Sequence record: SRR31156797_1360
Direction: 5' to 3' (one strand)
Length of the DNA stretch: 20,000 bases
The position numbers and the translations under genes are program-made. A model generated the notes under the pieces. The model was given only the letters and a program-made list of their open reading frames with translations. It did no database searches and was not told the DNA's origin. Below, one piece after another: positions 1,178 through 18,337 of the stretch. Within the stretch, counting starts at the first letter, position 1, and every line of letters starts with the position of its first letter.

Positions 1178-1205
1178 AAATTAGATCAGATTGATAACCT
1201 TAGGG

Positions 1206-3323: not shown

Positions 3324-3343
3324 AATGTTGAGACGATTAGGTC

Positions 3344-4597
3344 TTATAAGTTGTAAGTAATACCAATTCCGGGTAGGAATCCAGTATTTTTATATTTTCC
3401 ACCAAAACCACTATTGGTATCCATTCCATTAACCTCTTCACCTTCAATATAAAGAAGAGAAACATCTAAACTTAGCTTCTCATTTAGCATGTAAGAAGCA
3501 CCTGCAGAAAGACCAATTTTATTAGCTCCTGGTGTTTCTGGAGTGTAGTAGTTTTTATTTGTTGGTGTTTCATCGTAATAGAAACCAGCTCTAAGATCTA
3601 ATTTATCATTAGCCGAATATTGTGCTCCAATACGATAAATCATTGTATTATCCCAGTTTCTAAGGCTTTTAGAATCTAGAACGCCTGCTGGATCATTTTC
3701 AAAATCAAAATCTAAGGATTTGTATTCATCCCATTTAACAAAATTTACATCAGCTGAAACTAACCACTTTTCATTAATTTCATATGCCAGACCAATGTTA
3801 AAGCTTGCAGGCAGAGGAAGAGTCGCAGAAATTCCACCATCAGGGAAAGCGCCTGCAAATGGAGCCAAACTTGAAGGTAGGGTAAAATCTGCGTCACCTT
3901 CAGAATAATCTAAATCAATATCAACTTGAGAACGATAAGATAATCCGATATTTAATTTTTCATTAGGTTGTAAAAAGATTCCTAAATTATAACCATATTT
4001 TATTTTGTCACCTTTTAAATTAACATTTCCATCAGCGATGTAAGAACCATCTGCAGGATTCAAAACAGGAAAATTTCGGTTTAAATCGAATTGTCCATAT
4101 ACAATATTTAATCCAGCACCAACGCTAATCCAATCTGCTAATTTGTAAGAAATGGTAGGTTGAATATAAATGGCTTTTAAGCTAATATCTTGAATTAGAT
4201 ATTTACCAGACCATTCTTTGCCCCAATCTACTTTATTACCAAATGGAGTATAAACTCCTAAACCCAATGCAAGCTTGTCATTTACTTTCATTGATCCGTA
4301 TAAATAGAATGGTGTTCCTGTTGGATTATCTGTTTCTTCAACACCTGCTGCTCCTGTATATTCAGTTTTGATTAGAGTTGCAAAGCCACCAACAGAAAAA
4401 CTATACTTTTGATCTATGGTTGCCAAGGCTCCTGGGTTCCATTGCATACTACTAGCATCGAAGTTTAATGCAGTTCCAACATGTCCCATACCGGTTTGTT
4501 TAACACCTTGGACATTCACAGCATAACCTTCTGCTTTTACATTTACATTGTATGCCATTACAATAACTGCAATCGCTAAACAAATCTTTCTTATCAT
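3344..4597 (-). CDS. FadL/OmpP1/TodX-family outer-membrane transporter for long-chain fatty acids or other hydrophobic compounds
   Basis: Probable true start is the ATG at 4597 (MIRKICLAIAVIVMAYNVNVKA-EGY, a signal peptide), not 4675. Hatch-like N-terminus with GMG and WNPGAL (the NPA-like motif), LGLGVYTPFG, IQPTISYK, LPASFNIG, LRAGFYYDETP, and a C-terminal beta-strand GIGITYNL. Confidence 0.9.
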   Translation of the reverse strand: MIRKICLAIAVIVMAYNVNVKAEGYAVNVQGVKQTGMGHVGTALNFDASSMQWNPGALATIDQKYSFSVGGFATLIKTEYTGAAGVEETDNPTGTPFYLYGSMKVNDKLALGLGVYTPFGNKVDWGKEWSGKYLIQDISLKAIYIQPTISYKLADWISVGAGLNIVYGQFDLNRNFPVLNPADGSYIADGNVNLKGDKIKYGYNLGIFLQPNEKLNIGLSYRSQVDIDLDYSEGDADFTLPSSLAPFAGAFPDGGISATLPLPASFNIGLAYEINEKWLVSADVNFVKWDEYKSLDFDFENDPAGVLDSKSLRNWDNTMIYRIGAQYSANDKLDLRAGFYYDETPTNKNYYTPETPGANKIGLSAGASYMLNEKLSLDVSLLYIEGEEVNGMDTNSGFGGKYKNTGFLPGIGITYNL

Positions 4598-4816
4598 AAG
4601 TTGATGTTTTAAAATTCGGTCTGAATATAATTTATTTTCTTTTGCATACAAGAAGTTTTGAATTGAATTGAACAATGTTGATTGGATAAGTATCAGTAGT
4701 ACAGATGAATGTATGTATTTATATTTATTGATATGAAAAACATTTTCCTTAAAGGGGATTGGATTTTATTAAATTTTAATACTTTTATCTTGAATAAAAC
4801 ATCCTTATTCAATCAT

Positions 4817-5971
4817 ATGAGTGTTAAGTTGAATAAAAAAACGCAAGGAAATTTTGCTTATCAAAGTTTTAAAGAGGGCTATCGTAGTGTAACTCCCTCA
4901 TTGATTAATCGTTCGTTCGAGTGGAAAGATAAGCAAATAAATATTTTATTGGAATCCGCAATGTTGGAATTGGGAGAGTTGAATGCTTATTCAAAGTTTT
5001 TCCCAAATATAAATCAACATGTGCCTTTATTTGTAGCACAAGAGTCTGTAGCTTCCAACTTGATTGAAGGTAGCAAGTGTAATATCTCACAAGCTTTTGT
5101 ACCTGAAACTTCGAGAAGTTTTAAACGGATTTATGAGCAAAAGGAGATTACAAATCATATTGAAGCTATAAATTGGGGAGTAAAGGAGTTACGTAGATTT
5201 CCTCTTTCTATTAGACTAATTAAAGAATCTCATAGATTGTTGTGTTCTGACCTGCCTCAAAAAGAAGATTTTGGAGGTAAAATTCGACCTTTTTATGATT
5301 CCAACGATAGAAAATTTGATTCAGATTTTAAATACACTCCACCTAATAAACATGAGTTAAAAATCTTGATTAACGACGCCAAGAAATTCTGGCGTAATGA
5401 TGATTTAGAATTGCCTTTGTTAATAAAAATGGCAATTTCACTTTATCAGTTTGAAAATATTCTTCCTTTTCTTGATGGTAATGGAAGAACGGCCAGAACA
5501 TTGATTCTTTTTGAAATGTTGGAGTTAAAATTTGTTTACAAACCTGTGTTTTGCTTATCTGTATTTTTTGAAAAGAACAGATTGGAATATTACAACCGAC
5601 TAAATTTAATTCGTTCAAAAAATGATATTGAACAATGGATAAAGTTTTTTTTGACTGGAATTCGAGAATCAGCGATTCACAGTAAAGAGATTTTAGCACA
5701 ATTAAAGAAACTAATAGATACGTACAATACACGGATCGAATCTCAGATGGGTAAGAAAAGACATCAAACGGCTAAATTGTTAATGTTGGAATTTTATAGT
5801 AAACCATTCTTAACAGTGAATGAAGTTAAAGAAAAACTTAACCTTAGTTTTCAATCAGCAAATCAATTGATCAAAGAATTTGAATCGACTGGTTTAATAA
5901 AAGAATTGATTGGTGCCCGTAGAAACAGAATATTTTATTTGTGGGAGTATCTGGGTTTATTTGAATTATAA
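4817..5971 (+). CDS. Fic-family protein (N-terminal inhibitory SxxxEG helix, Fic core, C-terminal winged-helix-like domain) with a degenerate catalytic motif
   Basis: SNLIEG inhibitory motif; core YQFENILPFLDGNGRTAR versus canonical HPFx(D/E)GNGRxxR; EQWIKFFLTG; C-terminal LSFQSANQLIKEFESTGLIKELIGARRNRIF. The start is placed at ATG 4817 (MSVKLNKK) because the extension to 4709 looks like AT-rich intergenic DNA. Confidence 0.88.
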   Translation: MSVKLNKKTQGNFAYQSFKEGYRSVTPSLINRSFEWKDKQINILLESAMLELGELNAYSKFFPNINQHVPLFVAQESVASNLIEGSKCNISQAFVPETSRSFKRIYEQKEITNHIEAINWGVKELRRFPLSIRLIKESHRLLCSDLPQKEDFGGKIRPFYDSNDRKFDSDFKYTPPNKHELKILINDAKKFWRNDDLELPLLIKMAISLYQFENILPFLDGNGRTARTLILFEMLELKFVYKPVFCLSVFFEKNRLEYYNRLNLIRSKNDIEQWIKFFLTGIRESAIHSKEILAQLKKLIDTYNTRIESQMGKKRHQTAKLLMLEFYSKPFLTVNEVKEKLNLSFQSANQLIKEFESTGLIKELIGARRNRIFYLWEYLGLFEL

Positions 5972-5976
5972 GTAAG

Positions 5977-6006
5977 AAAAAAGGTTGATTCAATGAACCA
6001 ACCTTT
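5977..6006 (-). terminator. Intrinsic terminator of sucCD, possibly bidirectional with the convergent Fic gene
   Basis: Minus strand reads AAAGGTTGGTTC-ATT-GAATCAACC-TTTTTT with one G-U pair. It lies between two convergent stops (5971 and 6026). Confidence 0.8.
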
Positions 6007-6025
6007 CTATATGTTTGAGATTATT

Positions 6026-6901
6026 TTAAGCTAAAACTTCTTTCATTTTTTTACCTATATCGGCAGGAGAACTAACTACGTGAATTCCTGCAGCAGCTAA
6101 TGCCTTCATTTTTTCTTCAGCAGTACCTTTTCCGCCAGCAATAATTGCGCCTGCGTGTCCCATACGTTTACCCGGAGGCGCAGTTTGACCTGCAATAAAT
6201 GCAACAACAGGTTTATCAACATTTTTAGCAATGTATTCAGCAGCAGTTTCTTCATCAGAACCGCCAATTTCGCCAATTAAAACAATTGCTTCGGTTTTTG
6301 GATCATCATTCAATAATTTTACCGCATCAATGTGTTTGGTTCCAATAATTGGATCTCCACCAATACCAATTGCAGTAGATTGTCCAAAACCAGCCTCACC
6401 TAATTGGTGAACAGCTTCGTAGGTTAATGTACCCGAACGAGAAACAATACCTATGGTTCCAGGATTGTGAATAAATCCAGGCATGATACCAATTTTAGCT
6501 TCGCCTGGAGTAATAACACCAGGACAGTTCGGACCGACTAAAGTGGTTTCAGGATATTTCTTTAGAAATTCGTGAACTTTTAACATATCAAAAGTTGGAA
6601 TTCCTTCAGTAATACAAATAACCAATTCAACACCAGCTTCGGCAGCTTCCATAATTGCATCAGCAGCAAATGGAGGTGGAACAAAAATAACAGATGCATT
6701 AGCTCCTGTTTTTTCCACAGCACCTTTCATGGTATTGTGAATTGGAATTTTATCCATAAATAGCTGACCGCCTTTACCAGGAGTAACTCCAGCAACTACA
6801 TTCGTTCCATATTCGATCATTTGTTGGGTATGGAAAGCCCCTTCAGAACCAGTGATTCCCTGAACCACTAACTTTGTATTTTTATCGACTAATACGCTCA
6901 T
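6026..6901 (-). CDS. sucD: Succinyl-CoA ligase [ADP-forming] alpha subunit
   Basis: [42 protein letters not shown] and the phospho-His motif KRMGHAGA. Start overlaps the sucC stop (TAATG). Confidence 0.98.
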
Positions 6902-8070
6902 TATGCTTCAATTGTTTTAAGGGTGGCTACTACTTTTTTAGCTGCATCTTCTAATTCTGTTGCAGCAATAATATTCATTCCAGATGCCTCTAAAAGCTTC
7001 TTGCCTTCTTCAGCATTGGTTCCTTGTAAGCGAACCACAATTGGCACTTTTGTATCGATATTTTTGATTGCTTCAATAACTCCTTTTGCAACTCTGTCGC
7101 AACGAACAATACCACCAAAAATGTTGATTAGAACAGCTTTTACGCTACCATCTGATAGAATAATTCTAAAACCTTTCTCAACAGTCTCAGCAGAAGCTCC
7201 TCCTCCAACATCAAGGAAGTTAGCAGGTTCACCACCAGTAAGTTTAATAATATCCATGGTTCCCATTGCTAAACCAGCACCGTTTACCATACATCCTATA
7301 TTACCATCTAGCTTAATGTAATTTAATCCAGATCTACCAGCTTCAATTTCTAGAGGTTCTTCTTCGTCTAAATCGCGAAGAGCAGCAATTTCTTTATGGC
7401 GATACAAGGCATTTTCATCGAAATTTGCTTTTGCATCAAGTGCGATAACATCTCCTTCTTTTGTAACCACCAATGGGTTGATTTCAAAAATAGAAGCATC
7501 AGTTCCCATGTATGCCTTATAAAGTGCCATTAAAAATTTTACACCATTTTTAAAAGCATCACCAGTTAAATCAAGTGCGAAAGCCATTTGTCTGGCTTGA
7601 AAAGCTTGTAAACCAACTGCAGTATCAACAACTACTTTTACAATTTTTTCAGGAGTTTCCTCAGCTACTTTTTCAATTTCCATACCACCTTCGGTAGATA
7701 CCATAAAGGTAACAGCAGAAGTAGCACGATCCATTACAATACCTGCATACAACTCACGGTCGATATTCGATGCCGCTTCAATTAGAACTTTTTTTACTAG
7801 ATTTCCTTCAGGACCAGTTTGATGTGTTATCAGTGTCATTCCTAATATGTCATTTGCATATCTGGATACATCCTGAGCTGTAGGTGCGAATTTAACTCCT
7901 CCACCTTTACCTCTACCACCGGCATGAATTTGGGCTTTAACAACAACGGGCAATCCAATTTCGGTTGCAGCATCTTCAGCTTCCTTTACCGAAAAAGCAA
8001 TTTTGCTTTCCGGAACAGGAACACCAAACGACCGTAAAATTTCTTTTGCTTGATATTCGTGAATCTTCAT
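6901..8070 (-). CDS. sucC: Succinyl-CoA ligase [ADP-forming] beta subunit
   Basis: True start MKIHEYQAK at 8070; [70 protein letters not shown]. Confidence 0.98.
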
Positions 8071-8421
8071 TCTGTATAATTTTTTGTTAGGCTTGGAAAT
8101 GACCTGCAAAAGCTCTGCTAGTATTGTTTTAATTGATTTTGAACAGGTTTAGGCAAGTCGGTTAATAAAATACAATTGTTTAAATTTTTGATGAACCTAA
8201 ATATATAAATATCTGCATGGAATAAAAAGGACATTTATTGGAAATTTAAAGATTTTCGCATCTTTAAATGGCTGATTGTTTTAACTGTTTGATTGCCATG
8301 GCTTATGATGTGTGTTATTCTTTTTCGATATGGATATAGATTCCAATGATACTATCGCATAAAGTTTTCTGCATTTATTTTTTCTAATAAAACACTAACT
8401 TCATGAAAAATTGAAAATAGT

Positions 8422-9576
8422 ATGTATCCTGTAGAATTACGATTAGATTTTTTTGCTCTATTAATATTATTGGGTGTATTCCAAGGCTTTTTTCTCACCT
8501 ATTTTTTCTTGAATAAGGAGAATCGAAAAATCGTTTCCAATCGCCTGTATGGATTGCTTATTGGATCGTTATCGATTATGATTTTGGAGCATTGGTTGAA
8601 TTATACAGGATACATTGCCCAAATTATTTGGATTGATAATTACTCCGAACCATTTAATTTTTTCATAGCACCAATTGCTTTTTTATTCGTGAAAACGAAT
8701 CTCAAACCTCGTTTTGATAAAAAAGATTTGCTTCATTTAATACCATTTGCGATTTACTTTTGCTATTCATTTTTCTATTTTTTGCAGACCGACGAATTTA
8801 AATTCAATTCATTTTTGTGGGTTAACCATCCCGATTGGGAAAGAATTGTGGCAATTGAACGATTTAACTCAGATCCTTTAGGATTAAGATCTATAGTTAA
8901 TGATATGACATTGGTACATTTTGTAATTTACAATTTCATGTCAATGAGATTGGTTGTATTGGAGGTGAAAAAAGAGAAGTTGAAATTTTGGAAGCTAACA
9001 AATACCAGATTAAGGTGGTTACGCAACTTGATTTTCCATTTTATCATGATCATTTTGATTTTTGTTTTTGCTAAAAGCTACTATGGTAGAGATTTGGGTG
9101 ATCATTTAATTGGAGCGTATACTGCATTAATTATATATCTAATAAGCATTCAGGCTTTTAATGAATCTGCTTTTTTTAAGAAATCAGGTGAAATGGTTAA
9201 GGTTTCCAAATACACAAAATCTTCTTTATCAGAAGAACAAAAAGATGAAATATTAATCAACTTACAGAAGGAGATGAGAGAGAATGAATATTTTACCAAC
9301 AACATGGCTTCTCTTCCTGATTTGGCTAAAAGAGTATCTTCAGTTTCGCATCACGTTTCTCAAGTGATCAATGAGCGATTGGGAAAAAGCTTTTTTGAGT
9401 GGTTGGCAGAAAATAGAATTGAGAAGGCTAAGCAGATTCTATCAACACCTAAAACTGCAAAAATAACTATAGAAGAATTGGCTGAACTTGTTGGTTACAA
9501 TTCAAAATCATCATTCAATAAATCCTTTAAAAAGTATACTGGGCAAACTCCAAGTCAATTTCGAGATGCTTCTTAA
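8422..9576 (+). CDS. Membrane-anchored AraC/XylS-family transcriptional regulator
   Basis: About seven hydrophobic N-terminal segments, a linker KYTKSSL, then the AraC HTH region (SLPDLAKRV...HHVSQVINERLGKSFFEW...RIEKAK...IEELAELVGYNSKSSFNKSFKKYTGQTPSQFR). Confidence 0.93.
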   Translation: MYPVELRLDFFALLILLGVFQGFFLTYFFLNKENRKIVSNRLYGLLIGSLSIMILEHWLNYTGYIAQIIWIDNYSEPFNFFIAPIAFLFVKTNLKPRFDKKDLLHLIPFAIYFCYSFFYFLQTDEFKFNSFLWVNHPDWERIVAIERFNSDPLGLRSIVNDMTLVHFVIYNFMSMRLVVLEVKKEKLKFWKLTNTRLRWLRNLIFHFIMIILIFVFAKSYYGRDLGDHLIGAYTALIIYLISIQAFNESAFFKKSGEMVKVSKYTKSSLSEEQKDEILINLQKEMRENEYFTNNMASLPDLAKRVSSVSHHVSQVINERLGKSFFEWLAENRIEKAKQILSTPKTAKITIEELAELVGYNSKSSFNKSFKKYTGQTPSQFRDAS

Positions 9577-9612
9577 GTCTCATGAAATCAGTTATTGATG
9601 GTGTGTTTTAAG

Positions 9613-9634
9613 GTGTTGCCTTATAAGGGAACAC
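9613..9634. promoter_or_regulatory. 22-bp near-perfect palindrome, candidate operator upstream of the acyltransferase gene
   Basis: GTGTTGCCTTA|TAAGGGAACAC: 10 of 11 dyad positions are complementary, with no loop and no U-tract. Confidence 0.45.
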
Positions 9635-9721
9635 AGTCACCCAATAGGGAGATTCTAATTTAACGATGTATCTGACTTTACTTTGTTTTAGAAATCAAAG
9701 TTGAATGAAATTTTTATCGAA

Positions 9722-10873
9722 ATGGAAAAGTCAGAAAGAAGATACGAAGTAGATTGGTTACGAATATTATTAATTCTTAGTGTGTTTATATTTCATATTG
9801 GAATGTTCTTTAATACGTTTGGTTGGCATGTTAAAAATAATGTACAAGTAAGCGAATTGAGTGGAATAATGTCCTTCCTTCATATTTGGAGAATGCCATT
9901 GTTATTTTTTGTATCGGGTGCTGGAACTCATTTTGCTTTGGGGAATAAAACTTTGAGAAAATATGCTTCAGAAAGAAACAAGCGATTGATGCTTCCATTT
10001 TTGTTTGGGATATTCACTTTGGTACCGATTCAAGTATACCTTGAAAAATTCGATCAGTACTCCTCTCTTTTAAATTTTTATTCTCACATGTTCGAAGGAG
10101 CTTATCCCGAAGGTAATATGAGCTGGCATCATCTGTGGTTTATTCTGTACTTGTTTATTGTATCGATGCTATCTATTCCAGTAATCAAATGGTTTAGGAG
10201 TTCAAAATCTAGATTATTTTTTAAGTTGATAGATAAACTTGCCAGTAAAAAAGCTGGATTATTGTGGCTAGCAATTCCAATAATCATATCACAAATGATT
10301 CTTAGGCCATATTTTCCGGAGAGTACACATGCTTTGGTAGATGATTGGGCATATATGGCGATGTATTTTATATTCTTTATTTATGGTTATGTATTTGCTC
10401 AAAGTAAAATGTTTTCCCAAAATATAGTAAGTCAGCGATATATCCATTTGTTTGCTTCTATTCTTGTAACAATTTTGCTTTTTAACAGTTCCAATTTAAT
10501 TGAAAACAAGTATTGGGCTGGATACCTATATGGAGTATTATCAATTCTAGTAGCTTGGTTTGTTGGATTAACTGCAATGGGATTTTGTTTTAAGTATCTA
10601 ACATTTAATTCAAAACTTAGAAAATATGCTAACGAAGCCGTTTATCCTTTCTATTTGCTGCATCAGCCAATTATTCTATTAATTGGTTTTTATATGAAGG
10701 ATTTGGAAATGAGTGTTACATTGAAAGCAATTTATCTTACTGTAGCTAGTTTTACAGCTAGTGTAGGAATTTACATATTATTGATTCGCCCATTTAATTT
10801 AATGAGGATTGTATTTGGATTGAAAGCACGTAAACAAAAAGAAATTGAGTTAAGTGTGATAGGCAATAAATAA
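9722..10873 (+). CDS. Acyltransferase family 3 (OpgC/MdoC-like) integral membrane protein
   Basis: RRYEVDWLR...FH, WRMPLLFFVSG, KRLMLP, HHLWFILYL, VYPFYLLHQP and about ten TM segments. ATG 9722 is preferred over TTG 9701. Confidence 0.9.
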   Translation: MEKSERRYEVDWLRILLILSVFIFHIGMFFNTFGWHVKNNVQVSELSGIMSFLHIWRMPLLFFVSGAGTHFALGNKTLRKYASERNKRLMLPFLFGIFTLVPIQVYLEKFDQYSSLLNFYSHMFEGAYPEGNMSWHHLWFILYLFIVSMLSIPVIKWFRSSKSRLFFKLIDKLASKKAGLLWLAIPIIISQMILRPYFPESTHALVDDWAYMAMYFIFFIYGYVFAQSKMFSQNIVSQRYIHLFASILVTILLFNSSNLIENKYWAGYLYGVLSILVAWFVGLTAMGFCFKYLTFNSKLRKYANEAVYPFYLLHQPIILLIGFYMKDLEMSVTLKAIYLTVASFTASVGIYILLIRPFNLMRIVFGLKARKQKEIELSVIGNK

Positions 10874-10893
10874 TAACCTTTAATCAAGCTTTG

Positions 10894-10929
10894 AGAGGTT
10901 CATCTGATAAGGTGAACCTTTGTTGTATT
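10894..10929 (+). terminator. Probable intrinsic terminator after the acyltransferase
   Basis: AGAGGTTCATCT-GATA-AGGTGAACCTTT, a 12-bp stem with two G-U pairs, followed by T-rich GTTGTATT. Confidence 0.7.
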
Positions 10930-11078
10930 CTAAAATTTCTCCAATGTATTTCTTCAAATTTCAGGAAAACATGTAAAAACTCCCATTTATCGATTTTTTT
11001 GAAGATTCTCCCGATTAAATAATGTCTGTATGCTGCGGATTTAGTAATTTCAAACTCAAACCTTAAAAATCAGGGAAG

Positions 11079-11124
11079 TTGAAGAAATGTCTTTAGTGGC
11101 CATAACAGATAAATATTTCTTCAA
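11079..11124. promoter_or_regulatory. Inverted repeat TTGAAGAAAT-N26-ATTTCTTCAA in the leader of the PspA operon
   Basis: Perfect 10-bp arms at 11079-11088 and 11115-11124. The same half-site recurs at 10948-10957 (exact) and 10935-10944 (one mismatch). Confidence 0.45.
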
Positions 11125-11174
11125 GAGGATAAATTGTTCTAATTTTAATTAATTCAATTTTAAAACTAAAAAAA

Positions 11175-11570
11175 ATGAGTGCATATTATAACAAGGTAAA
11201 AGATTACCTATTGAATTTAGAATACAATATTGTTCAGGAAGATACAACAGAAGAACTTTTTGTAGTAGAAAATCCTGAAGGTGGAATTGCAAATCTGATT
11301 GTAGATTGTGAGGATCCAATTTTAATTATTGAAGGATTACTTTTTGAAATATCTGATGAAAATCCTGATATCTATAAATCATTATTGATTAAGAATCGAG
11401 AAATCATACATGGAGCTTTTACTTTGGATGAATCAGGTAAGAAAGTTATTTTCAGGGATACTCTTCAGTTAGAGAATTTGGATCAGAATGAATTGGAAGC
11501 AACATTAAACTCATTAGAGATGTTGTTGAGTGAATATTCTGAGGAGATTATTTCATTTTCAAAATTGTAA
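11175..11570 (+). CDS. YbjN/CesT-like (type III secretion chaperone-fold) small acidic protein
   Basis: 131 aa and acidic, with the pattern LLIKNREIIHGAFTLDESGKKVIFRDTLQLENLDQNELEATL that is typical of YbjN/CesT-fold proteins. Its position directly before pspA parallels E. coli yjfI-yjfJ. Confidence 0.7.
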   Translation: MSAYYNKVKDYLLNLEYNIVQEDTTEELFVVENPEGGIANLIVDCEDPILIIEGLLFEISDENPDIYKSLLIKNREIIHGAFTLDESGKKVIFRDTLQLENLDQNELEATLNSLEMLLSEYSEEIISFSKL

Positions 11571-11590
11571 ACGAATAAAATAAAATACAA

Positions 11591-12295
11591 ATGGGAATTT
11601 TTAGTAGACTTTTTAACGTGGGCAAAGCAGAAGCTCACTCAGCTATAGATAAATTGGAAGATCCAATTAAGATGACCGAGCAGGGAATCAGAGATCTTAA
11701 AAAGGATTTAGATAAAAGCTTACAAGCATTAGCAGAAGTTAAAGCTTTGGCAATTCGCAGTAAGAGAGAATTAAATGAACAATCATCTGTTGCTAAAAAT
11801 TACGAGCAAAAAGCAATGTTGTTATTGCAAAAAGCTGAGAAAGGTGATTTAGAAATGTCGGAAGCTGAACGTTTGGCTACAGAAGCTCTTACTCGTAAAG
11901 AGGAAGCAACTGCAAATGCAGCCCGAGCTCAGGAAGAGGTAAGCAAGTTTGATACGAACATTAGCCAGTTAGATGCAAATGTGAAGAAGCTGAAATCGAC
12001 AATTACTCGTTACGAGAATGAGTTGAGAACTCTAAAAGCACGTGCTCGAGTAAGTTCGGCTACTCAGAAAATTAACAAACAACTTTCAGGAATCGATAGC
12101 TCGGGAACAGTTTCTATGCTTGAGAAAATGAAAGATAAAGTTGCTCAACAAGAAGCAATGGCTGAAGCTTATGGCGAAATTTCGATGGAGAACAGAAGTT
12201 TAGATGACGAAATTGATGCAACATTAAGCGATACGAATGTGAAAGCCTCAAACGCCCTGGAAGAATTAAAGGCGAAAATGAAGAACAAAGCATAG
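11591..12295 (+). CDS. PspA/IM30 (Vipp1, bacterial ESCRT-III-like) family protein
   Basis: Amphipathic N-terminus MGIFSRLFNVGKA...IDKLEDPIKMTEQGIRDLK, long coiled coil, LKARA, LEKMKDKV...EAMAEA, SLDDEI, and C-terminal LEELKAKM. Confidence 0.95.
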   Translation: MGIFSRLFNVGKAEAHSAIDKLEDPIKMTEQGIRDLKKDLDKSLQALAEVKALAIRSKRELNEQSSVAKNYEQKAMLLLQKAEKGDLEMSEAERLATEALTRKEEATANAARAQEEVSKFDTNISQLDANVKKLKSTITRYENELRTLKARARVSSATQKINKQLSGIDSSGTVSMLEKMKDKVAQQEAMAEAYGEISMENRSLDDEIDATLSDTNVKASNALEELKAKMKNKA

Positions 12296-12324
12296 CTGTT
12301 TTACAAATTTGAACGATAACAAAA

Positions 12325-12870
12325 ATGGGAATATCCGATTTTTTTAAAAGAAAAAAACAGCCTAAGTACGACAGCACCAATATCCGGGTAACCGACCTGG
12401 ATATTGGTTTTGTTTTTGAATACGACTTGGAAAGCTGGGAAGTACAGGCTTGTTACGAGTACGATTGGGGAGATAATTTTTTCACTCAGGAATTCAAGAT
12501 TTTTAATGGTGTTAAAACCTTGTTTCTTTCTGTTGAGGATGATGATGAGATATCTATTTCAGTATCTACTAAAATTAAAACTCGTCAACTAGGAACACAG
12601 GTTCATGAAGATTTGTTGAACCGTCAAAAAGCACCAACATCTTTCGAATATGAAGGAAGAAAGTACTTTTTTGAGAAGGAAGCTCCAGGTTATTTTAACG
12701 ATGTAGCTAAAGGAGAGGAGTGGTTGGAATTTGTATCCTGGGATTTTGAAGATGAAACCGGAGAATACATTGTAACTATTGAGCAGTGGGACGAAAAGGA
12801 ATTCGAAGCCTCAGCTGGTAAAGTGATTAAAGAATTCGAAATCTCGAACATTCTACCTTTTGAGAATTAA
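12325..12870 (+). CDS. DUF4178-like acidic, aromatic-rich beta protein
   Basis: DLDIGFVFEYDLESWEV...YDWG...EF...LFLSVEDDDE...YEGRKY...SWDFEDETGE..TIEQW..EFEAS.G pattern. Short amphipathic N-terminus MGISDFFKRKK. The gene context fits. Confidence 0.7.
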   Translation: MGISDFFKRKKQPKYDSTNIRVTDLDIGFVFEYDLESWEVQACYEYDWGDNFFTQEFKIFNGVKTLFLSVEDDDEISISVSTKIKTRQLGTQVHEDLLNRQKAPTSFEYEGRKYFFEKEAPGYFNDVAKGEEWLEFVSWDFEDETGEYIVTIEQWDEKEFEASAGKVIKEFEISNILPFEN

Positions 12871-12909
12871 TAATATTGCCAATAACCTAATATTTAAAAG
12901 CTATCATTT

Positions 12910-13737
12910 ATGAATACTGCAGCAAAAATAGTCATTGGGATTATTGTGGTGTTTTTTATTGCTAAAACTTGTGGAAGAGATAATTCTTCAAGTTCTAGCT
13001 ATAAATCATCATCATCCCAAACCGCAAAAACATGGGAGAAATCTCCAGTTGATGACTTGATAAAGGATTTGAATGGGGAACAGAACTTTTCAATCATCCT
13101 TTTTGATATGGATGCTGATGAGAATGGAAATACCTACCGTCATCAATATCAAACGATCATCCAACGTCCTGATACGGTTATCGAAAGCAAAACCGATTGG
13201 AAAAATGTAAGTGAAGCTTTCTTTTCTCAGAATATCAATAATATGGGAATGGAGATTGCTTCGAAAAAAGATGGTAAAGTTACCAAGCAAGCAGTTCCTG
13301 CCGGATACAATCATTACGTTGGTAATGAGAAATACGGGCGATGGGAAAATCGTGGAGGTTCCTCTTTCTGGGCTTTTTATGGGCAGTATGCTTTTATGTC
13401 GTCTATGTTTAATATGATGACTTATCGTCGATCGTATTGGGATGATTACAACCGAGGGGGATATTATGGAGGTTCTCGCGGATATTATGGACCTCGAGGA
13501 AGTAATCCGGTATACGGAACCAAGAGTTACACTTCGTCAAGCTCTGGAAGTAAAAGTAAATGGGCAAGCAAACCATCTACTTTTAAAGATAGAGTTCGCA
13601 GTAAGGTAAGCCGATCTTCTTCTACGAGCAATTCAAAATTCTCGAAGCAAAGAACAACTACAAAAACAAAAAGAAGTTCATCAAGATACAGTTCAAGTCG
13701 ATCCACTCGATCAAGAAGTGGTGGATTTGGAAAATAA
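12910..13737 (+). CDS. Membrane-anchored or possibly lipoprotein hypothetical protein with a Y/G-rich and S/R-rich low-complexity tail
   Basis: N-terminal hydrophobic stretch followed by Cys (IVIGIIVVFFIAKTC), Ser linker, globular middle, PAGYNHYVGNEKYGRW..GGSSFWAFYGQYAF, and a tail ending RSTRSRSGGFGK. Confidence 0.85.
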   Translation: MNTAAKIVIGIIVVFFIAKTCGRDNSSSSSYKSSSSQTAKTWEKSPVDDLIKDLNGEQNFSIILFDMDADENGNTYRHQYQTIIQRPDTVIESKTDWKNVSEAFFSQNINNMGMEIASKKDGKVTKQAVPAGYNHYVGNEKYGRWENRGGSSFWAFYGQYAFMSSMFNMMTYRRSYWDDYNRGGYYGGSRGYYGPRGSNPVYGTKSYTSSSSGSKSKWASKPSTFKDRVRSKVSRSSSTSNSKFSKQRTTTKTKRSSSRYSSSRSTRSRSGGFGK

Positions 13738-13768
13738 ACCCAGTGTATAATTCATAGATTAAAATATT

Positions 13769-14641
13769 ATGATGTCATTATCAGAAATTTCGTTTATCGT
13801 TTATGATGCTGTGGTTTATATAGCCGTGGCTTTTGCTATTTTCCTCATTGGAAAATTTGTTTACCAATTGCTTCATCCTTCGTTTAAGGTGAAAGAGGAG
13901 TTGGTTAAGAAAGATAATTTTGCTTTTGCAATTGCTCATGTAGGTTACTATGTAGGATTGCTTTTGGCAATTGGTAGTGCAATAGTTGGTCCATCGAACG
14001 GATTGGTTGCCGATATTATCGATATCGCAGTATATGGTTTGCTGGCAATTGTACTATTGAACTGTTCCATTTTTATTTCAGATTATCTGATGCTTCGTAA
14101 CTTCTCAATTCGCAAAGAGATTATTGAGGATCAGAATGCAGGAACAGGAATTGTAGAAGGTGCTGTTTCGGTAGCTTCCGGATTGATTATTTTTGGAGCT
14201 GTTTCTGGTGAAAGTGGAGATCTGCTATTTGGAATTTTAACCGCAGTAGTGTTTTGGGCATTCGGACAGTTGGCTCTGATTATTACGACCAGATTCTACA
14301 ATTGGATTACGCCTTACAACCTTCATGAGCACATTGAAAAAGACAATGTTGCTGTTGGTGTCGGTTTTGCCGGAGCTATTATCGCTATTGCCAATTTAAT
14401 TCGTTTTGGATTGGCTGGTGATTTCGAAGGTTGGTTGCCATCCTTTACCGAAACAGGTTTCGAATTACTTGTTGGATTAATTCTTCTTCCTGTAATGCGT
14501 TTGATTACAGATAAAATTTTACTTCCAGGTGAAAGGTTGACTGACGAAATTATCAATCAGGAACATCCAAATGTGGGTGCTGCTTTGGTAGAAGCTTTTG
14601 CTTATATCGGAGGATCGGTACTAATCACATGGTGCTTGTAA
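13769..14641 (+). CDS. DUF350 (UPF0719/YjfL-like) membrane protein, internally repeated
   Basis: About eight TM segments and four repeats of an E-hydrophobic...N-x-(A/G) loop (EELVKKDNFAFA, EIIEDQNAGTG, EHIEKDNVAVG, EIINQEHPNVGAA). Confidence 0.85.
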   Translation: MMSLSEISFIVYDAVVYIAVAFAIFLIGKFVYQLLHPSFKVKEELVKKDNFAFAIAHVGYYVGLLLAIGSAIVGPSNGLVADIIDIAVYGLLAIVLLNCSIFISDYLMLRNFSIRKEIIEDQNAGTGIVEGAVSVASGLIIFGAVSGESGDLLFGILTAVVFWAFGQLALIITTRFYNWITPYNLHEHIEKDNVAVGVGFAGAIIAIANLIRFGLAGDFEGWLPSFTETGFELLVGLILLPVMRLITDKILLPGERLTDEIINQEHPNVGAALVEAFAYIGGSVLITWCL

Positions 14642-14645
14642 ACAA

Positions 14646-14680
14646 GTAAAAGGTAACAAGTATAAAGATACAAGATATCC
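14646..14680. repeat. Degenerate heptamer tandem repeat
   Basis: GTAAAAG GTAACAA GTATAAA GATACAA GATATCC, a strict 7-nt period. Confidence 0.5.
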
Positions 14681-14694
14681 TTGATCGGTTTGGA

Positions 14695-14735
14695 CTTTCT
14701 CCCTTTTTATGGGAGATCCCGACAGGGAGAGGGGT
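14695..14735. repeat. GC-rich REP-like double hairpin
   Basis: TCTCCC-TTTTTAT-GGGAGA followed by TCCC-GACA-GGGA and GAGGGGT. It stands out against the AT-rich background. Confidence 0.5.
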
Positions 14736-14768
14736 GTTTTAAGAATTAGAATTCATAAGTAAAGAATT

Positions 14769-16307
14769 GTGTTTAAAAGTAAATCTACATTATTAAAGGC
14801 AGCAATATTTGCCACCGGATTTTCGGGTGTGGTGGCAGAATATATTCTGTCTACTATGGCTACCTATTTTTTAGGAGATTCCAATTTTCAATGGATAATG
14901 ACCATCTCGTTGATGTTATTTTCAATGGGATTGGGAAGTCGTTTAAGTAAGAATTTTGATAAGAACTTGTTAAAACTCTTTTTGTTTACTGAGTTTGCCT
15001 TATCTATAATTGTTTCCTTTGCTCCATTATTGGTTTATACAGCTTCGGCATACACACAAGCTGTAGGAATATTGATTTATTCTTTAGCAATACTAGTCGG
15101 TTTGCTCATTGGGATGGAGATTCCATTGGTAATCCGTATTAACGATGATTACGAGAAACTGCGTTTTAATATTTCCAATATCTTGGAAAATGATTACTAT
15201 GGCAGTTTATTGGGAGGTATGTTCTTTGCCTTTATTGGTTTGCCAATTTTTGGGCTGATTTACACACCATTCATACTCGGTTTCGTTAATTTTTCTGTCT
15301 CAATTGTTGTATTGATTTTCCTTTGGAACTTATTGAAAGCAGGAGAGCAAAAAAGCCTGGTCGCAGTTGGTAGTTTTATATTGATATTTTTAACCTCAGG
15401 AGTTTTTGTTGCCGATAATGTAATTACCTATGGGGAGCAGCGAAAATATGCCGATAAGGTGATTTATGCTGAGCAAACCAAGTATCAAAGAATTGTAATT
15501 ACCCAATGGAAGAATGATTATTGGTTGTATTTAAACGGCAACCAGCAATTGTGTACTCGCGATGAAATCATGTATCACGAGCCTTTGGTTCATCCAGCAA
15601 TGACTATGCATCCTAACCCAACCGATGTTTTGGTTTTAGGTGGTGGCGATGGTTGTGCTGTTCGTGAGATTTTGAAGTATCCAAAAGTGGAAGAAATCAC
15701 CTTGGTAGATTTGGATCCGGCAATGACTAACTTAGGGAAAAGTAATCCTATTTTGACCGAGCTAAATCAAAATTCGTTGAGTAACGAAAAAGTGAAGATA
15801 CTGAATGATGATGGATATAAATACTTGCTGGCAACTGATAATTATTACGATATAATTATTATCGATTTACCAGATCCTCGTTCGGTTGAATTGGGCAGAT
15901 TGTATTCACATGAATTCTATAAAGTTTGCTACAAACATTTACGCCCTGGTGGTGTAATTATCACACAAGCTGGGAGTCCATATTTTGCCACACAGGCTTT
16001 TACCTGTATTTTGGAAACTATGAAAAGTGCTGGTTTCGAAACGGTGCCTATGCACAATCAGGTAATAACACTTGGTGAGTGGGGATGGAGTTTAGGAGTT
16101 AAACAGCCAAACTCAAATGTGAAAAAGCAATTGCAGAAACTGGAATTTGATGTGCCTACAAAATGGATAAATAATGAAGCAATGGCATTGATCACTTCTT
16201 TTGGTAAAGATTTTTATCCTTGGGTAAAAGACAGTGTATATGTCAATAGAATTCACGAACCAGTTTTGTACAAGTACTATTTAAAGGGGAATTGGGACCT
16301 GTATTGA
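14769..16307 (+). CDS. speE: Polyamine aminopropyltransferase (spermidine synthase family) with an N-terminal multi-TM domain
   Basis: GTG start, about seven TM segments in the first ~215 aa, then QTKYQRI, LYLNGNQQ, MYHEPLVHP, VLVLGGGDG, LVDLDP, DIIIIDLPDP, LYSHEFY, LRPGG and GEWG. Confidence 0.92.
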   Translation: MFKSKSTLLKAAIFATGFSGVVAEYILSTMATYFLGDSNFQWIMTISLMLFSMGLGSRLSKNFDKNLLKLFLFTEFALSIIVSFAPLLVYTASAYTQAVGILIYSLAILVGLLIGMEIPLVIRINDDYEKLRFNISNILENDYYGSLLGGMFFAFIGLPIFGLIYTPFILGFVNFSVSIVVLIFLWNLLKAGEQKSLVAVGSFILIFLTSGVFVADNVITYGEQRKYADKVIYAEQTKYQRIVITQWKNDYWLYLNGNQQLCTRDEIMYHEPLVHPAMTMHPNPTDVLVLGGGDGCAVREILKYPKVEEITLVDLDPAMTNLGKSNPILTELNQNSLSNEKVKILNDDGYKYLLATDNYYDIIIIDLPDPRSVELGRLYSHEFYKVCYKHLRPGGVIITQAGSPYFATQAFTCILETMKSAGFETVPMHNQVITLGEWGWSLGVKQPNSNVKKQLQKLEFDVPTKWINNEAMALITSFGKDFYPWVKDSVYVNRIHEPVLYKYYLKGNWDLY

Positions 16308-16331
16308 TAATGATCAATTATTAATGAGTAA
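16304..16331. repeat. Degenerate heptamer tandem repeat
   Basis: TTGATAA TGATCAA TTATTAA TGAGTAA, filling the speE-speD spacer. Confidence 0.5.
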
Positions 16332-16335
16332 TTAA

Positions 16336-16686
16336 ATGGAGTCAGAAACAAAAATATTAGCAGCAAAAATTCACAACCTTCGCTTTTGGGTATCGGAATG
16401 CAATCCGGATATCTTAAAAGAAACTTTCCAAAATTATTTGGAACAGGTTAAATTTGTGATTTTGAATTGTTCCGATCATCATTTTCCGGTGCAAGGATAT
16501 ACTGCATTTTGGTTGTTGGCAGAATCGCATTTAGCCATTCATACATTTCCAGATAAAGGATGGTCGTACGTAGAATTGAGTTCTTGCAATCAATTAAAAT
16601 CGAAGAATTTTAAGGAACTGGTTGAACAAAGCAATTTGGATGTAAATTGGAATGGAAATGGTATAGAAATTTGTTTACCTGAATAA
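16336..16686 (+). CDS. speD: Pyruvoyl-dependent S-adenosylmethionine decarboxylase family proenzyme (short class 1B-like)
   Basis: F.VQGYTAFWLLAE|SHLAIHTFPD...VELSSC, with the self-cleavage site E63-S64 plus His69 and Cys84. Adjacent to the aminopropyltransferase. Confidence 0.88.
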   Translation: MESETKILAAKIHNLRFWVSECNPDILKETFQNYLEQVKFVILNCSDHHFPVQGYTAFWLLAESHLAIHTFPDKGWSYVELSSCNQLKSKNFKELVEQSNLDVNWNGNGIEICLPE

Positions 16687-16696
16687 GTCAATTCTT

Positions 16697-17722
16697 ATGA
16701 ATAAAAAACTCGGGTTTTTAATTGCCTTTTTGGTATATGTTATTGCGATTTTAGCGATTCATTGGTTCGAAAGTCAATCGGCAGAATCCAATATCAAAAC
16801 CATTGGTGATGCCTTTTGGTATGCTATTGTAACACTTACTACGGTTGGCTATGGTGATTTTTATCCAGTGACTTTACCAGGGAAAATTATCGGTTTAATT
16901 GTAATTATTGGTAGTCTAGGAATTTTAGGATTTATTATTGGAGAAGTAACGGTAAGATTCAATCAGTATATGGAAAAGAAAAAAAGTGGTTTTTGGGGAA
17001 CCGATTTTGACAATCATTATGTGATTATTGGTTGGAATGAATTCGGACAGAAAGTGGCAAATCAAATTATTCATGCAGGACAAAAGGTTGCATTTGTAAC
17101 CAATTCAAAAGCCGATTTAGATTTGATTACGGATTTGTATTCTTCAAAAGATGTCTTCTGTTTATTTGCCGATTACTCTAATATTGATGCCTACACTAAA
17201 ATCAATATCGAGAGCTCGAAACGAGTATTTGTAAATTTTGTTGAGGATTCGGAAACTCTGGTTTTTGTAATCAATTTAAAAAAGCAATATCCTACTGCAA
17301 ATGTTGTGGTAACCTGCACTAACCCAAGTTTGAAAGAGACTTTCCTAAATGCAGGAATCGATCATGTGATTGCTCAAAACGAGGTGGCTTCTAAATTGGT
17401 TGCTTCCTATTTATTTGAACCTCATGTTGCAACCTATACCGAAGATTTAATAGCTACAAGTGTTGCAGAAGAAGATTCTGATATTCAGCAATATTTAATT
17501 ACAGAAGAATGTGATTTTTCAGGTTCTGACTACATGAATGCTTTTATGAAACTGAAATTGGATTACAATTCCATTTTGATTGGTTTGGTGAAGGATGATA
17601 AAATCATTAAAAATCCGGTAAAAGGAACGACGATAAATGCCGGAAATTATTTAATACTAATTTCTACAGGAGACAGCAAGCAAGGTCTTGAGAACTTTTT
17701 TGGAGTTAAAGAAGGAGAATAG
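16697..17722 (+). CDS. 2-TM potassium channel with a C-terminal RCK (TrkA-N/C-like) gating domain
   Basis: Pore helix and filter DAFWYAIVTLTTVGYGDFYP (TVGYG at 16841-16855), TM2, then Rossmann-like HYVIIGWNEFG and AGIDHVI. Confidence 0.95.
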   Translation: MNKKLGFLIAFLVYVIAILAIHWFESQSAESNIKTIGDAFWYAIVTLTTVGYGDFYPVTLPGKIIGLIVIIGSLGILGFIIGEVTVRFNQYMEKKKSGFWGTDFDNHYVIIGWNEFGQKVANQIIHAGQKVAFVTNSKADLDLITDLYSSKDVFCLFADYSNIDAYTKINIESSKRVFVNFVEDSETLVFVINLKKQYPTANVVVTCTNPSLKETFLNAGIDHVIAQNEVASKLVASYLFEPHVATYTEDLIATSVAEEDSDIQQYLITEECDFSGSDYMNAFMKLKLDYNSILIGLVKDDKIIKNPVKGTTINAGNYLILISTGDSKQGLENFFGVKEGE

Positions 17723-17780
17723 TATTGATTTCAATGTATTAAATACTGTCACTATTCACCAGTATAAGTATTAATGCTTC

Positions 17781-17853
17781 CACAGCCTAAGTGTTGACAG
17801 TGTCATAGCTTAAGTGTGAAGACTGTCATAGCCTAAGGGCGAACAGTCTCATA
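17781..17853. repeat. 23-bp quasi-palindromic tandem repeat (3 copies plus a partial copy, with a degenerate copy upstream)
   Basis: CACAGCCTAAGTGTTGACAGTGT / CATAGCTTAAGTGTGAAGACTGT / CATAGCCTAAGGGCGAACAGTCT / CATA, head-to-tail with no spacers. Confidence 0.8.
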
Positions 17854-17878
17854 TTATAAATTGGCGTATTTCAGAAAT

Positions 17879-18337
17879 TTACTCCGGATTGTATCCCACA
17901 TCATCCGGAAGGTTGGGTGCCTGCGAAGCCATAACTGCAAGTTCATCTGCTCGTTCGTTGCCTGGAATATTCGAATGACCTTTCACCCACACAAATTTCA
18001 CATTGTGTTTCTTATAGATCTCAAGAAAACGCATCCATAAATCAGCATTTTTCTTTCCTTTAAAACGTTTTTTCACCCAACCGAATACCCACTTTTTATC
18101 TACTGAATCTATCACGTATTTTGAATCAGAATAAATCGTAACATCGCAGCCAGGATTTTTTAGGCTTTCCAAACCCACGATAACAGCCAGTAATTCCATT
18201 CTGTTATTGGTAGTAAGTTTATAACCCTGGTTTAAATCTTTACGGTGTTTCCCCGATATTAAAACAACTCCATATCCTCCCGGTCCGGGATTTCCACTTG
18301 CTGCACCATCCGTAAACATTGTAATTTTTGCTGACAT
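17879..18337 (-). CDS. rnhA: Ribonuclease HI
   Basis: FTDGAASGNPGPGGYG, TTNNRMELLA, YSDSKYV, KNADLW, WVKGH, NERADELA. All catalytic acidic residues are present. Confidence 0.98.
   Translation of the reverse strand: MSAKITMFTDGAASGNPGPGGYGVVLISGKHRKDLNQGYKLTTNNRMELLAVIVGLESLKNPGCDVTIYSDSKYVIDSVDKKWVFGWVKKRFKGKKNADLWMRFLEIYKKHNVKFVWVKGHSNIPGNERADELAVMASQAPNLPDDVGYNPE

Follow-up and report, generated by a model that had tools for sequence, protein, structure and literature searches.

An eight-gene locus with PspA, a seven-transmembrane aminopropyltransferase, SpeD and an MthK-like K+ channel as a candidate Marinifilaceae member of the CesT/Tir-PspA operon class

The DNA stretch analyzed here, 20,000 nucleotides (nt) of sequence record SRR31156797_1360 and referred to below as the window, contains at 11175-17722 a locus of eight genes in which a PspA/IM30 protein is encoded together with a spermidine synthase-like enzyme fused to seven transmembrane (TM) helices (7TM-SpeE), a SpeD-like S-adenosylmethionine (AdoMet) decarboxylase and a K+ channel. 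On balance, we favour the reading that the locus represents, in Marinifilaceae, a class of operons with CesT/Tir, PspA and a 7TM aminopropyltransferase that has already been published, and that it is extended by SpeD as supplier of decarboxylated AdoMet (dcAdoMet) and by an MthK-like channel. The eight genes belong to recognizable families with intact motifs, their order is found across Bacteroidota, PspA, SpeE and SpeD are single-copy in the closest genomes, and an RNA hairpin downstream of pspA is conserved. A first-pass annotation of the window, made without database searches, had presented the locus as a candidate uncharacterised system; however, the operon class and, separately, its links to K+ channels and AdoMet decarboxylases (AdoMetDC) are already described in the accessible portions of Ravi et al. 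2024 (mSystems, PMC11237479).

The list of open reading frames (ORFs) agreed exactly with the claim of eight co-oriented genes separated by gaps of 10-39 nt and one of 127 nt: all are on the plus strand, and the intergenic gaps are 20, 29, 39, 31, 127, 28, and 10 nt. Searches of Pfam and NCBIfam upheld the domain identity proposed for each of the eight proteins. The first gene (11175-11570) encodes a small cytoplasmic CesT/Tir-like (YbjN-like) protein of 131 amino acid residues, with a full-length match to CesT_Tir_1 (PF22550, 179.6 bits) and weaker matches to the Pfam families YbjN (24.8 bits) and CesT (22.6 bits). It is followed by pspA (11591-12295), whose product is a PspA/IM30 (ESCRT-III-like) protein of 234 residues (PF04012, 162.8 bits) with an N-terminal MGIFSRLF segment, and by a gene (12325-12870) encoding a beta-rich DUF4178 protein of 181 residues (PF13785, 67.4 bits) without signal peptide. 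The fourth gene (12910-13737) encodes a lipoprotein of 275 residues with no Pfam family, which shows a signal peptide, Cys21 and an SGGFGK end, and the fifth (13769-14641) a tandem DUF350 integral membrane protein of the YjfL type with 290 residues (PF03994, 192.1 bits in two stretches). Downstream of the 127-nt gap (14642-14768), the gene of the SpeE-like 7TM-fused aminopropyltransferase (14769-16307) encodes 512 residues; its Spermine_synth domain (residues 267-452) is preceded by about 215 hydrophobic residues, and the match to NF002956/PRK03612 (561.7 bits, cut-off 472) spans residues 5-509. The last two genes encode a divergent class-1 pyruvoyl SpeD-like protein of 116 residues without signal peptide (16336-16686; PF02675 AdoMet_dc, 53.4 bits) and an MthK-like K+ channel of 341 residues with a 2TM pore and an RCK domain (16697-17722; PF07885, 51.8 bits; PF02254, 51.0 bits). 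The convergent rnhA gene proposed as downstream boundary was found as an RNase H gene on the minus strand (17879-18337, 135.1 bits). The upstream terminator stands in part: a 12-pair hairpin is located at 10894-10921, 21 nt past the stop of an acyltransferase gene, but its T tail is poor.

According to the accessible portions of Ravi et al. (PMC11237479), operons of this class occur across several phyla, and the "second major group" of CesT/Tir-PspA operons has six to seven genes, whose products are CesT/Tir-PspA, a 7TM-fused spermine/spermidine-synthase-like enzyme, a YjfL/DUF350 protein with eight TM helices, a new lipoprotein and DUF4178; in some operons the last gene encodes a ribbon-helix-helix (RHH) regulator, and AAN56744.1-AAN56747.1 are given as example proteins. 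The third group contains an ATP-grasp ligase and a ligand-sensing K+ channel, with variants that also encode AdoMet decarboxylase and polyamine oxidase. The authors proposed that polyamines, or aminopropylation of other substrates, are monitored through PspA-based membrane dynamics. Judged by its gene content and by the groups as described in those portions, the locus is a member of the second group plus two genes characteristic of the third, and its eight-gene form merges features of both. It shares with the second group the adjacent CesT/Tir and PspA genes, DUF4178, a lipoprotein, the tandem DUF350 protein and 7TM-SpeE, and differs from it in having eight genes, with the divergent SpeD and the MthK-like channel added and the RHH gene absent. 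As in the third group, genes for a K+ channel and an AdoMetDC are present; however, the ATP-grasp gene is absent. The supplementary tables of that work may already include the eight-gene form. The lipoprotein is probably the one called "Ctha_1186" there; no model of this name was found in Pfam, NCBIfam or PADLOC as searched. New in our analysis are the hairpin after pspA, the invariant -GK tail of the lipoprotein, the charge-bias evidence on topology, and a PspA-free module with an amine oxidase carrying a twin-arginine translocation (Tat) signal.

To compare loci, a search with the SpeE protein gave 120 pattern matches, 102 of which encode relatives, and the best 80 were kept; 55 of these 80 were fully flanked, with at least 4.5 kb upstream and at least 3 kb downstream of SpeE, and the counts of loci below refer to these 55 unless stated. 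The eight proteins were mapped by tblastn and then remapped with profile hidden Markov models (HMMs) built from those matches. All but one of the 80 loci have Bacteroidota-type labels, and the closest are those of Marinifilum and Labilibaculum. The full eight-gene order is found in 23 of 55 loci. Five have all genes but the channel, five are without SpeD and channel, six show only lipoprotein-DUF350-SpeE, four extend from DUF4178 through SpeD and three from DUF4178 through SpeE, four contain a solitary SpeE, and five further patterns are found in one locus each. Counted by gene, DUF350 adjoins SpeE in 51 loci, the lipoprotein is found beside SpeE in 50, DUF4178 in 44, PspA in 35 (36 with L023, where it was detected by tblastn only), SpeD in 35 and the channel in 26; furthermore, the CesT gene adjoins pspA in 35 of 55. 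Since 15 of the 23 complete loci belong to Marinifilum or Labilibaculum, these are non-independent counts; the remaining eight are labelled as Marinilabiliaceae, Salinivirgaceae, Flavobacteriaceae, Flavobacteriia, Bacteroidales and Marinifilaceae metagenome-assembled genomes (MAGs). The gene-neighbourhood check thus found the order syntenic in other genomes and the arrangement beyond chance, and this conserved linkage supports the idea of a single unit coupling PspA to membrane-bound amine chemistry. In three loci, a second CesT_Tir_1 paralogue lies in divergent orientation about 1 kb upstream of the operon (L031 906-1301, L033 662-1057 and L037 4817-5212, all on the minus strand).

The parallel that had been drawn with the yjf cluster of E. 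coli holds in part. In E. coli K-12 (NC_000913.3), yjfI encodes a DUF2170 protein, yjfJ a PspA family protein, yjfK a DUF2491 protein, yjfL a DUF350 protein and yjfM a DUF1190 protein, and RefSeq names YjfC peptide--spermidine ligase in the same record; in heat-evolved E. coli, according to the accessible part of PMC12492005, a promoter deletion strongly up-regulates yjfIJKL. Homology was found between PspA and YjfJ (E 7e-8, profile 2.4e-12) and between the DUF350 protein and YjfL (E 1.6e-4, profile 1.2e-10, with matches to both DUF350 halves), but it was not detectable for the other three pairs: the hhalign probabilities were 5.8% for CesT/YjfI, 1.7% for DUF4178/YjfK and 4.3% for lipoprotein/YjfM, and no operon protein of the window matched DUF2170, DUF2491 or DUF1190 in Pfam. 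With two homologous pairs only, the resemblance to E. coli lies mostly in gene position and in the logic of the cluster. In both clusters, a small protein of the CesT superfamily is combined with PspA, a cytoplasmic DUF protein, DUF350, a lipoprotein and a polyamine enzyme, whereas the enzyme is the ATP-grasp YjfC in E. coli and an aminopropyltransferase here, DUF350 is single (4TM) in E. coli and doubled here, and the order of lipoprotein and DUF350 is swapped. The suggestion that SpeE and SpeD take the place of the ATP-grasp module was borne out, as GSP_synth (PF03738) was found neither in the operon nor in any of five operon-carrying genomes; this fits mutual replacement of both enzyme types, five related genomes being a small test.

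Two other relatives were considered. The accessible part of Wallart et al. 2024 (PMC10948618) describes biofilm, rhamnolipid secretion, swarming and virulence phenotypes for the Pseudomonas aeruginosa bac cluster (PA3732-PA3729) and the accumulation of BacB upon osmotic shock. In this cluster, the only relative with phenotypes, a YjfI-type protein and a PspA homologue share one operon; however, it is proteobacterial, its authors state that a spermidine-synthase-like gene is absent from the operon and its vicinity, and its small protein is DUF2170 and not CesT_Tir_1. With the classical Psp and Lia systems, the locus has in common a PspA/IM30 effector with an N-terminal amphipathic segment; however, and as the first-pass annotation had stated, PspB, PspC, PspF and LiaFSR were not found among the 18 window ORFs scanned, a set made up of the operon genes and, outside the operon, of ORFs with at least 110 residues. 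The PspA/LiaH equivalog models of NCBIfam gave 65.1, 46.1, and 39.3 bits, with cut-offs of 242.95, 336, and 380, respectively.

Catalytic motifs are intact in SpeE and SpeD, and on this basis both enzymes look active. Among the spermidine synthases in PDB, the best match of SpeE is 2e5w (E 1.7e-38), followed by 3anx, 7xif and 1uir, which we take to be enzymes from thermophiles with a broad acceptor range. All 12 aligned SpeE homologues keep the motifs GGGDG and DLPDP (D-x-x-D-P), and seven charged residues of the 7TM domain (E24, R58, E75, E117, R123, E140, and D142) are likewise invariant in them. In an atlas search, the 7TM part matched nothing beyond unnamed "spermidine synthase-related" membrane clusters and a single MFS cluster (0.91). 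SpeD can be aligned with the AdoMetDC proenzymes 2iii and 1tlu and retains their Glu-Ser processing site as well as the His and the Cys, and its segment LLAESHLAIHTFPD...SSC matches the same residues of both structures. It scored 45.9 bits with the TIGR03330 equivalog, below the cut-off of 75.65, and about 53 bits with the AdoMet_dc Pfam model, compared with 139-148 bits for canonical SpeD genes elsewhere; it therefore represents a divergent clade. Other SpeD homologues have changed substrate (PMC10407285), and by analogy this one may have done so too. In the accessible part of Batth et al. 2023 (PMC10349129), dcAdoMet users are told apart from methyltransferases by an acidic residue in GxG(D/E)G, and the fungal NHMT (AN4663), which shares with SpeE the architecture of seven TM helices followed by a spermidine-synthase-like domain, has Ile in this motif, uses AdoMet as methyl donor and methylates secreted proteins, for which its TM domain is required; the 7TM sequence of NHMT is reported there only in filamentous fungi. 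Unlike NHMT, SpeE keeps the Asp (GGGDG) and is accompanied by a dedicated SpeD, and therefore it should use dcAdoMet. A segment of the SpeE gene (14855-15012, residues ~30-82) is a mosaic, in which the window resembles the Marinifilum fragile type (L008) and L001 the Labilibaculum type; the alternative version was also found in RNA contigs from two studies ("same length, diverged" joint, shared loose ends), which suggests recombination inside the 7TM domain.

The CesT-like protein is the proposed partner or chaperone of PspA. Complex prediction for this pair gave a score of 0.36, with 0.00 for the best of three controls, at least 92% contact agreement between runs and a partner predicted local distance difference test (pLDDT) value of at least 85. 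The mark used in this test was reached by 51 of 78 solved complexes and two of 108 mismatched pairs, and scores up to 0.60 were obtained by only five of those 78 solved complexes and by all four mismatches that passed, so the prediction is taken as a hint. The DUF4178 protein was modeled with a pLDDT of 87.2 as all-beta except for short helices; Foldseek found no match at E<=0.001, and the best VIA matches, profilin (Z 6.1) and EF-P domain I, eIF5A and CarD (Z 6.0-5.0), are under the noise level of the tool. Searched by sequence, PDB gave no match to the DUF4178 protein, the lipoprotein, the DUF350 protein or the CesT profile. The N-terminus of the DUF4178 protein (12325-12365) shows a conserved basic motif, MGxFDxFKKKKEP, which resembles the MGIFSRLF start of PspA (11591-11615), and the two may share a membrane- or PspA-docking peptide. 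E. coli YjfK aligns to the DUF4178 protein with a similar start.

A conserved terminator-like RNA hairpin with a U-run lies on the plus strand at 12370-12418, 75-123 nt past the pspA stop and within the first 32 codons of the DUF4178 gene; the scan flagged 14 pairs and the U-run at 12376-12418. Its minimum free energy is -25.9 kcal/mol (z -5.96), and none of 200 shuffles was equally stable. In an alignment of 13 sequences, 96.8% of the cells pair, in comparison with 35-51% in slid controls, and four compensatory pairs were found, with a covariation score reached by none of 500 shuffles. Compared with 200 synonymous recodings of its peptide (57 loci tested, one skipped), the hairpin was far more stable in the 20 loci of the closest clade, with z between -3.8 and -7.5, and z was about 0 in distant loci. 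The 0.01 level was reached in 20 of 44 loci with pspA upstream and in one of 10 without it, an association that is not independent because all 20 loci belong to one clade. Matches of the covariance model R1 in distant loci (19-45 bits, some without pspA) were attributed to coding conservation. We read the hairpin as a clade-specific, terminator-like candidate attenuator, which would give an excess of CesT-PspA over the downstream products.

The stretch is partly present in eight sequencing runs (six RNA libraries, four studies), and four RNA runs of three studies were compared. Contigs from these RNA libraries, 90-99% alike, span most of the operon. The CesT/PspA junction is bridged by X2 record 8 and X3 record 16, PspA/DUF4178 by X3 record 17, lipoprotein/DUF350 by X1 record 5, DUF350/SpeE by X1 record 7 and X2 record 11, and SpeE/SpeD by X3 record 23, with 32 nt on one side. 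Among the contigs listed for the four runs, none bridges the DUF4178/lipoprotein junction with 31 nt on both sides, and none the SpeD/channel junction. The RNA depth declines over the length of the operon, and contig breaks are found close to the hairpin, with X3 record 17 ending at 12425 and both X1 record 3 and X3 record 18 beginning at 12396; neither observation was used as evidence, as contigs cannot show ends or levels.

As a working model, cytoplasmic SpeD would make dcAdoMet, from which the membrane-embedded SpeE would move the aminopropyl group onto an amine located at the inner membrane or past it. The resulting cation, either a polyamine or an envelope molecule that has received the aminopropyl group, would act on the periplasmic side, where the GK-tailed lipoprotein and the tandem DUF350 protein would cooperate with SpeE. 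PspA, held or delivered by the CesT-like protein, would stabilize the cytoplasmic face of the same membrane, while the RCK-gated K+ channel would adjust ion flux or potential, and the hairpin would permit more CesT-PspA than downstream products to be made. PspA-type ESCRT-III proteins are under intensive study, and their partners beyond E. coli and Bacillus are largely untested. The Marinifilum/Labilibaculum group has cultivable members, and here one unit encodes scaffold, enzyme, cofactor supplier, channel and candidate substrate; together with the -GK tail, the topology, the sister oxidases and the hairpin, this makes the "polyamine and membrane stress" idea experimentally direct.

Several observations weigh against the extended-operon reading. 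In line with the earlier remark that no mechanism is known, the literature search gave no paper with an experiment on any 7TM-SpeE operon. The channel is absent from 29 of 55 loci, and in four of five genomes with a channel-less operon no orthologue was found elsewhere; furthermore, 7TM-SpeE lacks any partner gene in the four solitary loci, and SpeD gave no match in two genomes with the lipoprotein-DUF350-SpeE form, which are MAGs and perhaps incomplete. In the five closest genomes (G001-G005), the operon encodes the sole SpeE and SpeD, carboxyspermidine decarboxylase (nspC) was not found above the cut-off, and in G004 and G005 no deoxyhypusine-synthase-like (DHS-like) gene was found. The 20 residues after TM7 of SpeE are also basic (mean Lys+Arg 3.75), and the helix count comes from hydropathy only. 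The hairpin is restricted to one clade (Marinifilaceae/Marinilabiliaceae-type), and the RNA contigs fall short of proving one transcript, given that RNA libraries can contain DNA.

The absence of the channel from many loci is also what favours the view that it is a mere bystander without a part in the system, together with the missing orthologues in the channel-less genomes and with gaps of several hundred nt between SpeD and the channel in some loci. We nevertheless regard this as rather unlikely. The channel protein contains Ion_trans_2 and TrkA_N domains with a TVGYGD filter and aligns with the Ca2+-gated MthK (PDB 1lnq) over residues 17-335 (E 6.6e-16), with which it has the two-TM pore, the GYG filter and the RCK domain in common; the first RCK glycine motif in the window channel is G-W-N-E-F-G. 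We know of no link of MthK to polyamine genes. Orthologues of this channel (HMM scores of 464-592) adjoin the operon in loci whose labels name at least nine different families or genera. Most lie downstream of the other genes, those of L042 and L067 are inverted, and L018 has its channel upstream of CesT; one of the 26 adjoining copies in the 55 loci is inverted. Furthermore, PspA-free sister modules are found in L081 (6378-11633, plus strand), L035 (19263-14157, minus strand) and L066 (14896-17123, minus strand). The module of L081 starts with a 2TM-RCK channel and continues with a paralogue of 7TM-SpeE, a polytopic membrane protein without family assignment and, last, a flavin amine oxidase; that of L035 is alike, except that a divergent SpeD precedes it and the channel is of the 6TM type. 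The use of another channel type in this place speaks for a functional link. A K+ channel is also present in the sister ATP-grasp operons, according to the accessible portions of Ravi et al. (PMC11237479). The channel link claimed from the window thus recurs in three positions, in at least nine families or genera, and with another type of channel in the PspA-free sister module.

Genome-wide statements rest on the genomes of relatives, the closest being G001 (locus L001), with a DNA identity of 90-95%; G001-G005 are the genomes of loci L001, L008, L003, L011 and L037, respectively. In each of these five genomes, Spermine_synth, AdoMet_dc and PspA_IM30 gave one match each, all of them in the operon. 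SpeE and SpeD could accordingly be the plain spermidine pathway of the organism, membrane-anchored and placed in a PspA operon without functional coupling, as the single copies, the absence of nspC from all five, the intact catalytic motifs and the fact that the nearest solved relatives of SpeE are ordinary soluble aminopropyltransferases would suggest; if the product is plain spermidine, the locus is an ordinary pathway, oddly organised. We consider this explanation unlikely. Of the 55 loci, 51 retain DUF350 together with SpeE and 23 the complete gene set, and charged residues are invariant in the 7TM domain. The 7TM form was found above the cut-off in just 11 of 201 sampled genomes of the phylum, and many of the sampled genomes have a soluble SpeE (~290 residues). 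In three genomes whose operon lacks SpeD (G006, G009, and G010), a canonical SpeD-SpeE fusion, encoded in one frame of ~430 residues (G006:C3:81880-83004; G009:C13:163637-164758; G010:C30:90645-91769), exists elsewhere besides 7TM-SpeE, with 139-148 bits for the SpeD part and 207-217 bits for the SpeE part, and 7TM-SpeE is thereby the second or third aminopropyltransferase of these genomes. Two SpeE types each were also found in G028, G150 and G181, and similar frames of 420-470 residues recur in the phylum sample. G001-G003 show, in a separate cluster, a DHS-like gene beside the gene of a 469-residue decarboxylase, which is probably a homospermidine route. The possibility, raised by the first-pass annotation, that speE and speD are the only housekeeping genes of their kind and unlinked to PspA thus held in its first part for the five close genomes and failed in its second, the genetic link to PspA being strong. 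In Marinifilaceae, the SpeE/SpeD pair may also be the sole source of aminopropylated polyamines.

A more specific proposal concerns the side of the membrane on which SpeE works. Seven hydrophobic segments of SpeE were set by eye, and a hydropathy scan (window 19) gives four strongly hydrophobic stretches. Across 81 homologues, the mean number of Lys and Arg residues is 3.12 in the N-terminus and 2.46, 2.63, and 1.86 in the loops after TM2, TM4 and TM6, respectively, compared with 0.02, 0.00, and 0.00 in the other three loops (summed means of 10.07 in odd and 0.02 in even loops). This positive-inside bias puts the N-terminus in the cytoplasm, and with seven helices the catalytic domain would therefore be periplasmic. 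The lipoprotein consists of a signal peptide, Cys21, a globular core at residues ~45-135, a Tyr/Gly-rich stretch and a Ser/Arg-rich basic tail with the -GK end. In an alignment of 34 sequences, conservation of Cys21 is 90% or higher, and all 34 have G274 and K275; among complete homologues, once one truncated copy was dropped, the -GK terminus was found in 65 of 65 and the Cys in 64 of 65. The model of this protein has a pLDDT of 63.8, no family was found in Pfam, NCBIfam or PADLOC, and the best match of a fold search among 48,161 chains reached Z 2.9. In the sister modules, the amine oxidases of L081 and L035 have a twin-arginine motif (RR-x-F-L) and the Cys of a lipobox at their start, and therefore the oxidase chemistry of these modules is expected to be periplasmic. 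Charge bias, a lipoprotein with an invariant tail and Tat-signal sister oxidases all point to periplasm-directed chemistry.

From these features, it might be proposed that the periplasmic catalytic domain aminopropylates the invariant C-terminal lysine or the basic tail of the lipoprotein, with dcAdoMet passing outward via the acidic 7TM domain of SpeE or via the DUF350 protein and with PspA and the K+ channel buffering the membrane meanwhile. We judge this proposal, in the narrow and in the full form alike, to be quite improbable. It has a precedent, within the accessible part of PMC10349129, in the fungal NHMT, whose 7TM and spermidine-synthase-like architecture serves the modification of secreted proteins, and the sister cluster of E. 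coli encodes YjfC, with its RefSeq name of peptide--spermidine ligase. On the other hand, SpeD has no signal peptide, so that dcAdoMet would have to get across the membrane to reach an outward-facing SpeE, and an exporter for it is not known; E24, E75, E117, E140 and D142, the invariant acidic residues of the 7TM domain, are candidates for its passage. The basic flank after TM7 and the hydropathy-based helix count also stand against it, as does the operon form without lipoprotein in five of 55 loci. If true, aminopropylation of the lipoprotein tail would be a new bacterial protein modification tuning envelope charge.

That the locus is an anti-phage defence system triggered by phage attack, as the earlier mention of a possible defence role allowed, is hardly credible: apart from the historical "phage shock" name, it is favoured by PADLOC rows of PspA with JetC (E 9.5e-5) and LmuB (E 0.0053), both over the coiled coil, and of SpeE with mad2 (E 5e-19), over the shared AdoMet-binding fold (residues 282-424), whereas no PADLOC system model fits, five of the eight operon proteins are listed without match, PspA, SpeE and SpeD are single-copy in every genome examined (five), and the stable housekeeping genes rnhA and S46 peptidase flank the locus in 17 Marinifilum, Labilibaculum and related loci, so that it is not in a variable island. 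In a preprint, DUF350 genes are found near PspA in 10 huge-phage cases, which has no bearing on defence.

The non-coding region upstream of the operon (10975-11174, plus strand) is a candidate promoter/operator, with a mean column identity of 65% and long invariant blocks in 11 Marinifilum/Labilibaculum sequences. The Bacteroidota -7 consensus, TANNTTTG, has no exact match within 9821-12923, and sigma-70-like sites are not in excess (25, and 29.8 in shuffles). None of the four RNA runs covers 10500-11033, and Rfam gave no match in the window. In the 127-nt gap 5' of SpeE, the window shows a GC-rich hairpin of its own, which is absent in relatives and whose fold lacks significance, being matched by 22 of 200 shuffles (z -1.26). 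In L003, L005, L008 and L011 (~9877-9994), an AT-rich inverted repeat with arms of 29-34 nt, 76-83% complementary, lies directly 5' of SpeE; in the gap of the window (14642-14768), a GC-rich insert replaces most of it. The consensus fold of the gap alignment is just a 9-pair AT stem (-1.65 kcal/mol).

Upstream of the operon are an acyltransferase_3 gene and the gene of a membrane-anchored AraC-type regulator, a possible controller of the operon. Both lie in a 2.5-kb block (8357-10931), in which the regulator shows a multi-TM N-terminus and an HTH_18 domain; this block is not found in the closest relative, L001, and is located upstream of the operon in L005, L006, L008, L010 and L011. The remaining part of the window on this side (2-8109) encodes two TPR proteins, of which one contains a His_kinase domain of the LytS type, a FadL/TodX outer-membrane transporter, the alpha and beta subunits of succinyl-CoA ligase, and a Fic-domain protein with a winged-helix-like C-terminal match. 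On the other side, the gap between the channel gene and rnhA (17723-17878) contains short palindromic repeat units, and one RNA-library contig omits 70 nt of it (17807 to 17878).

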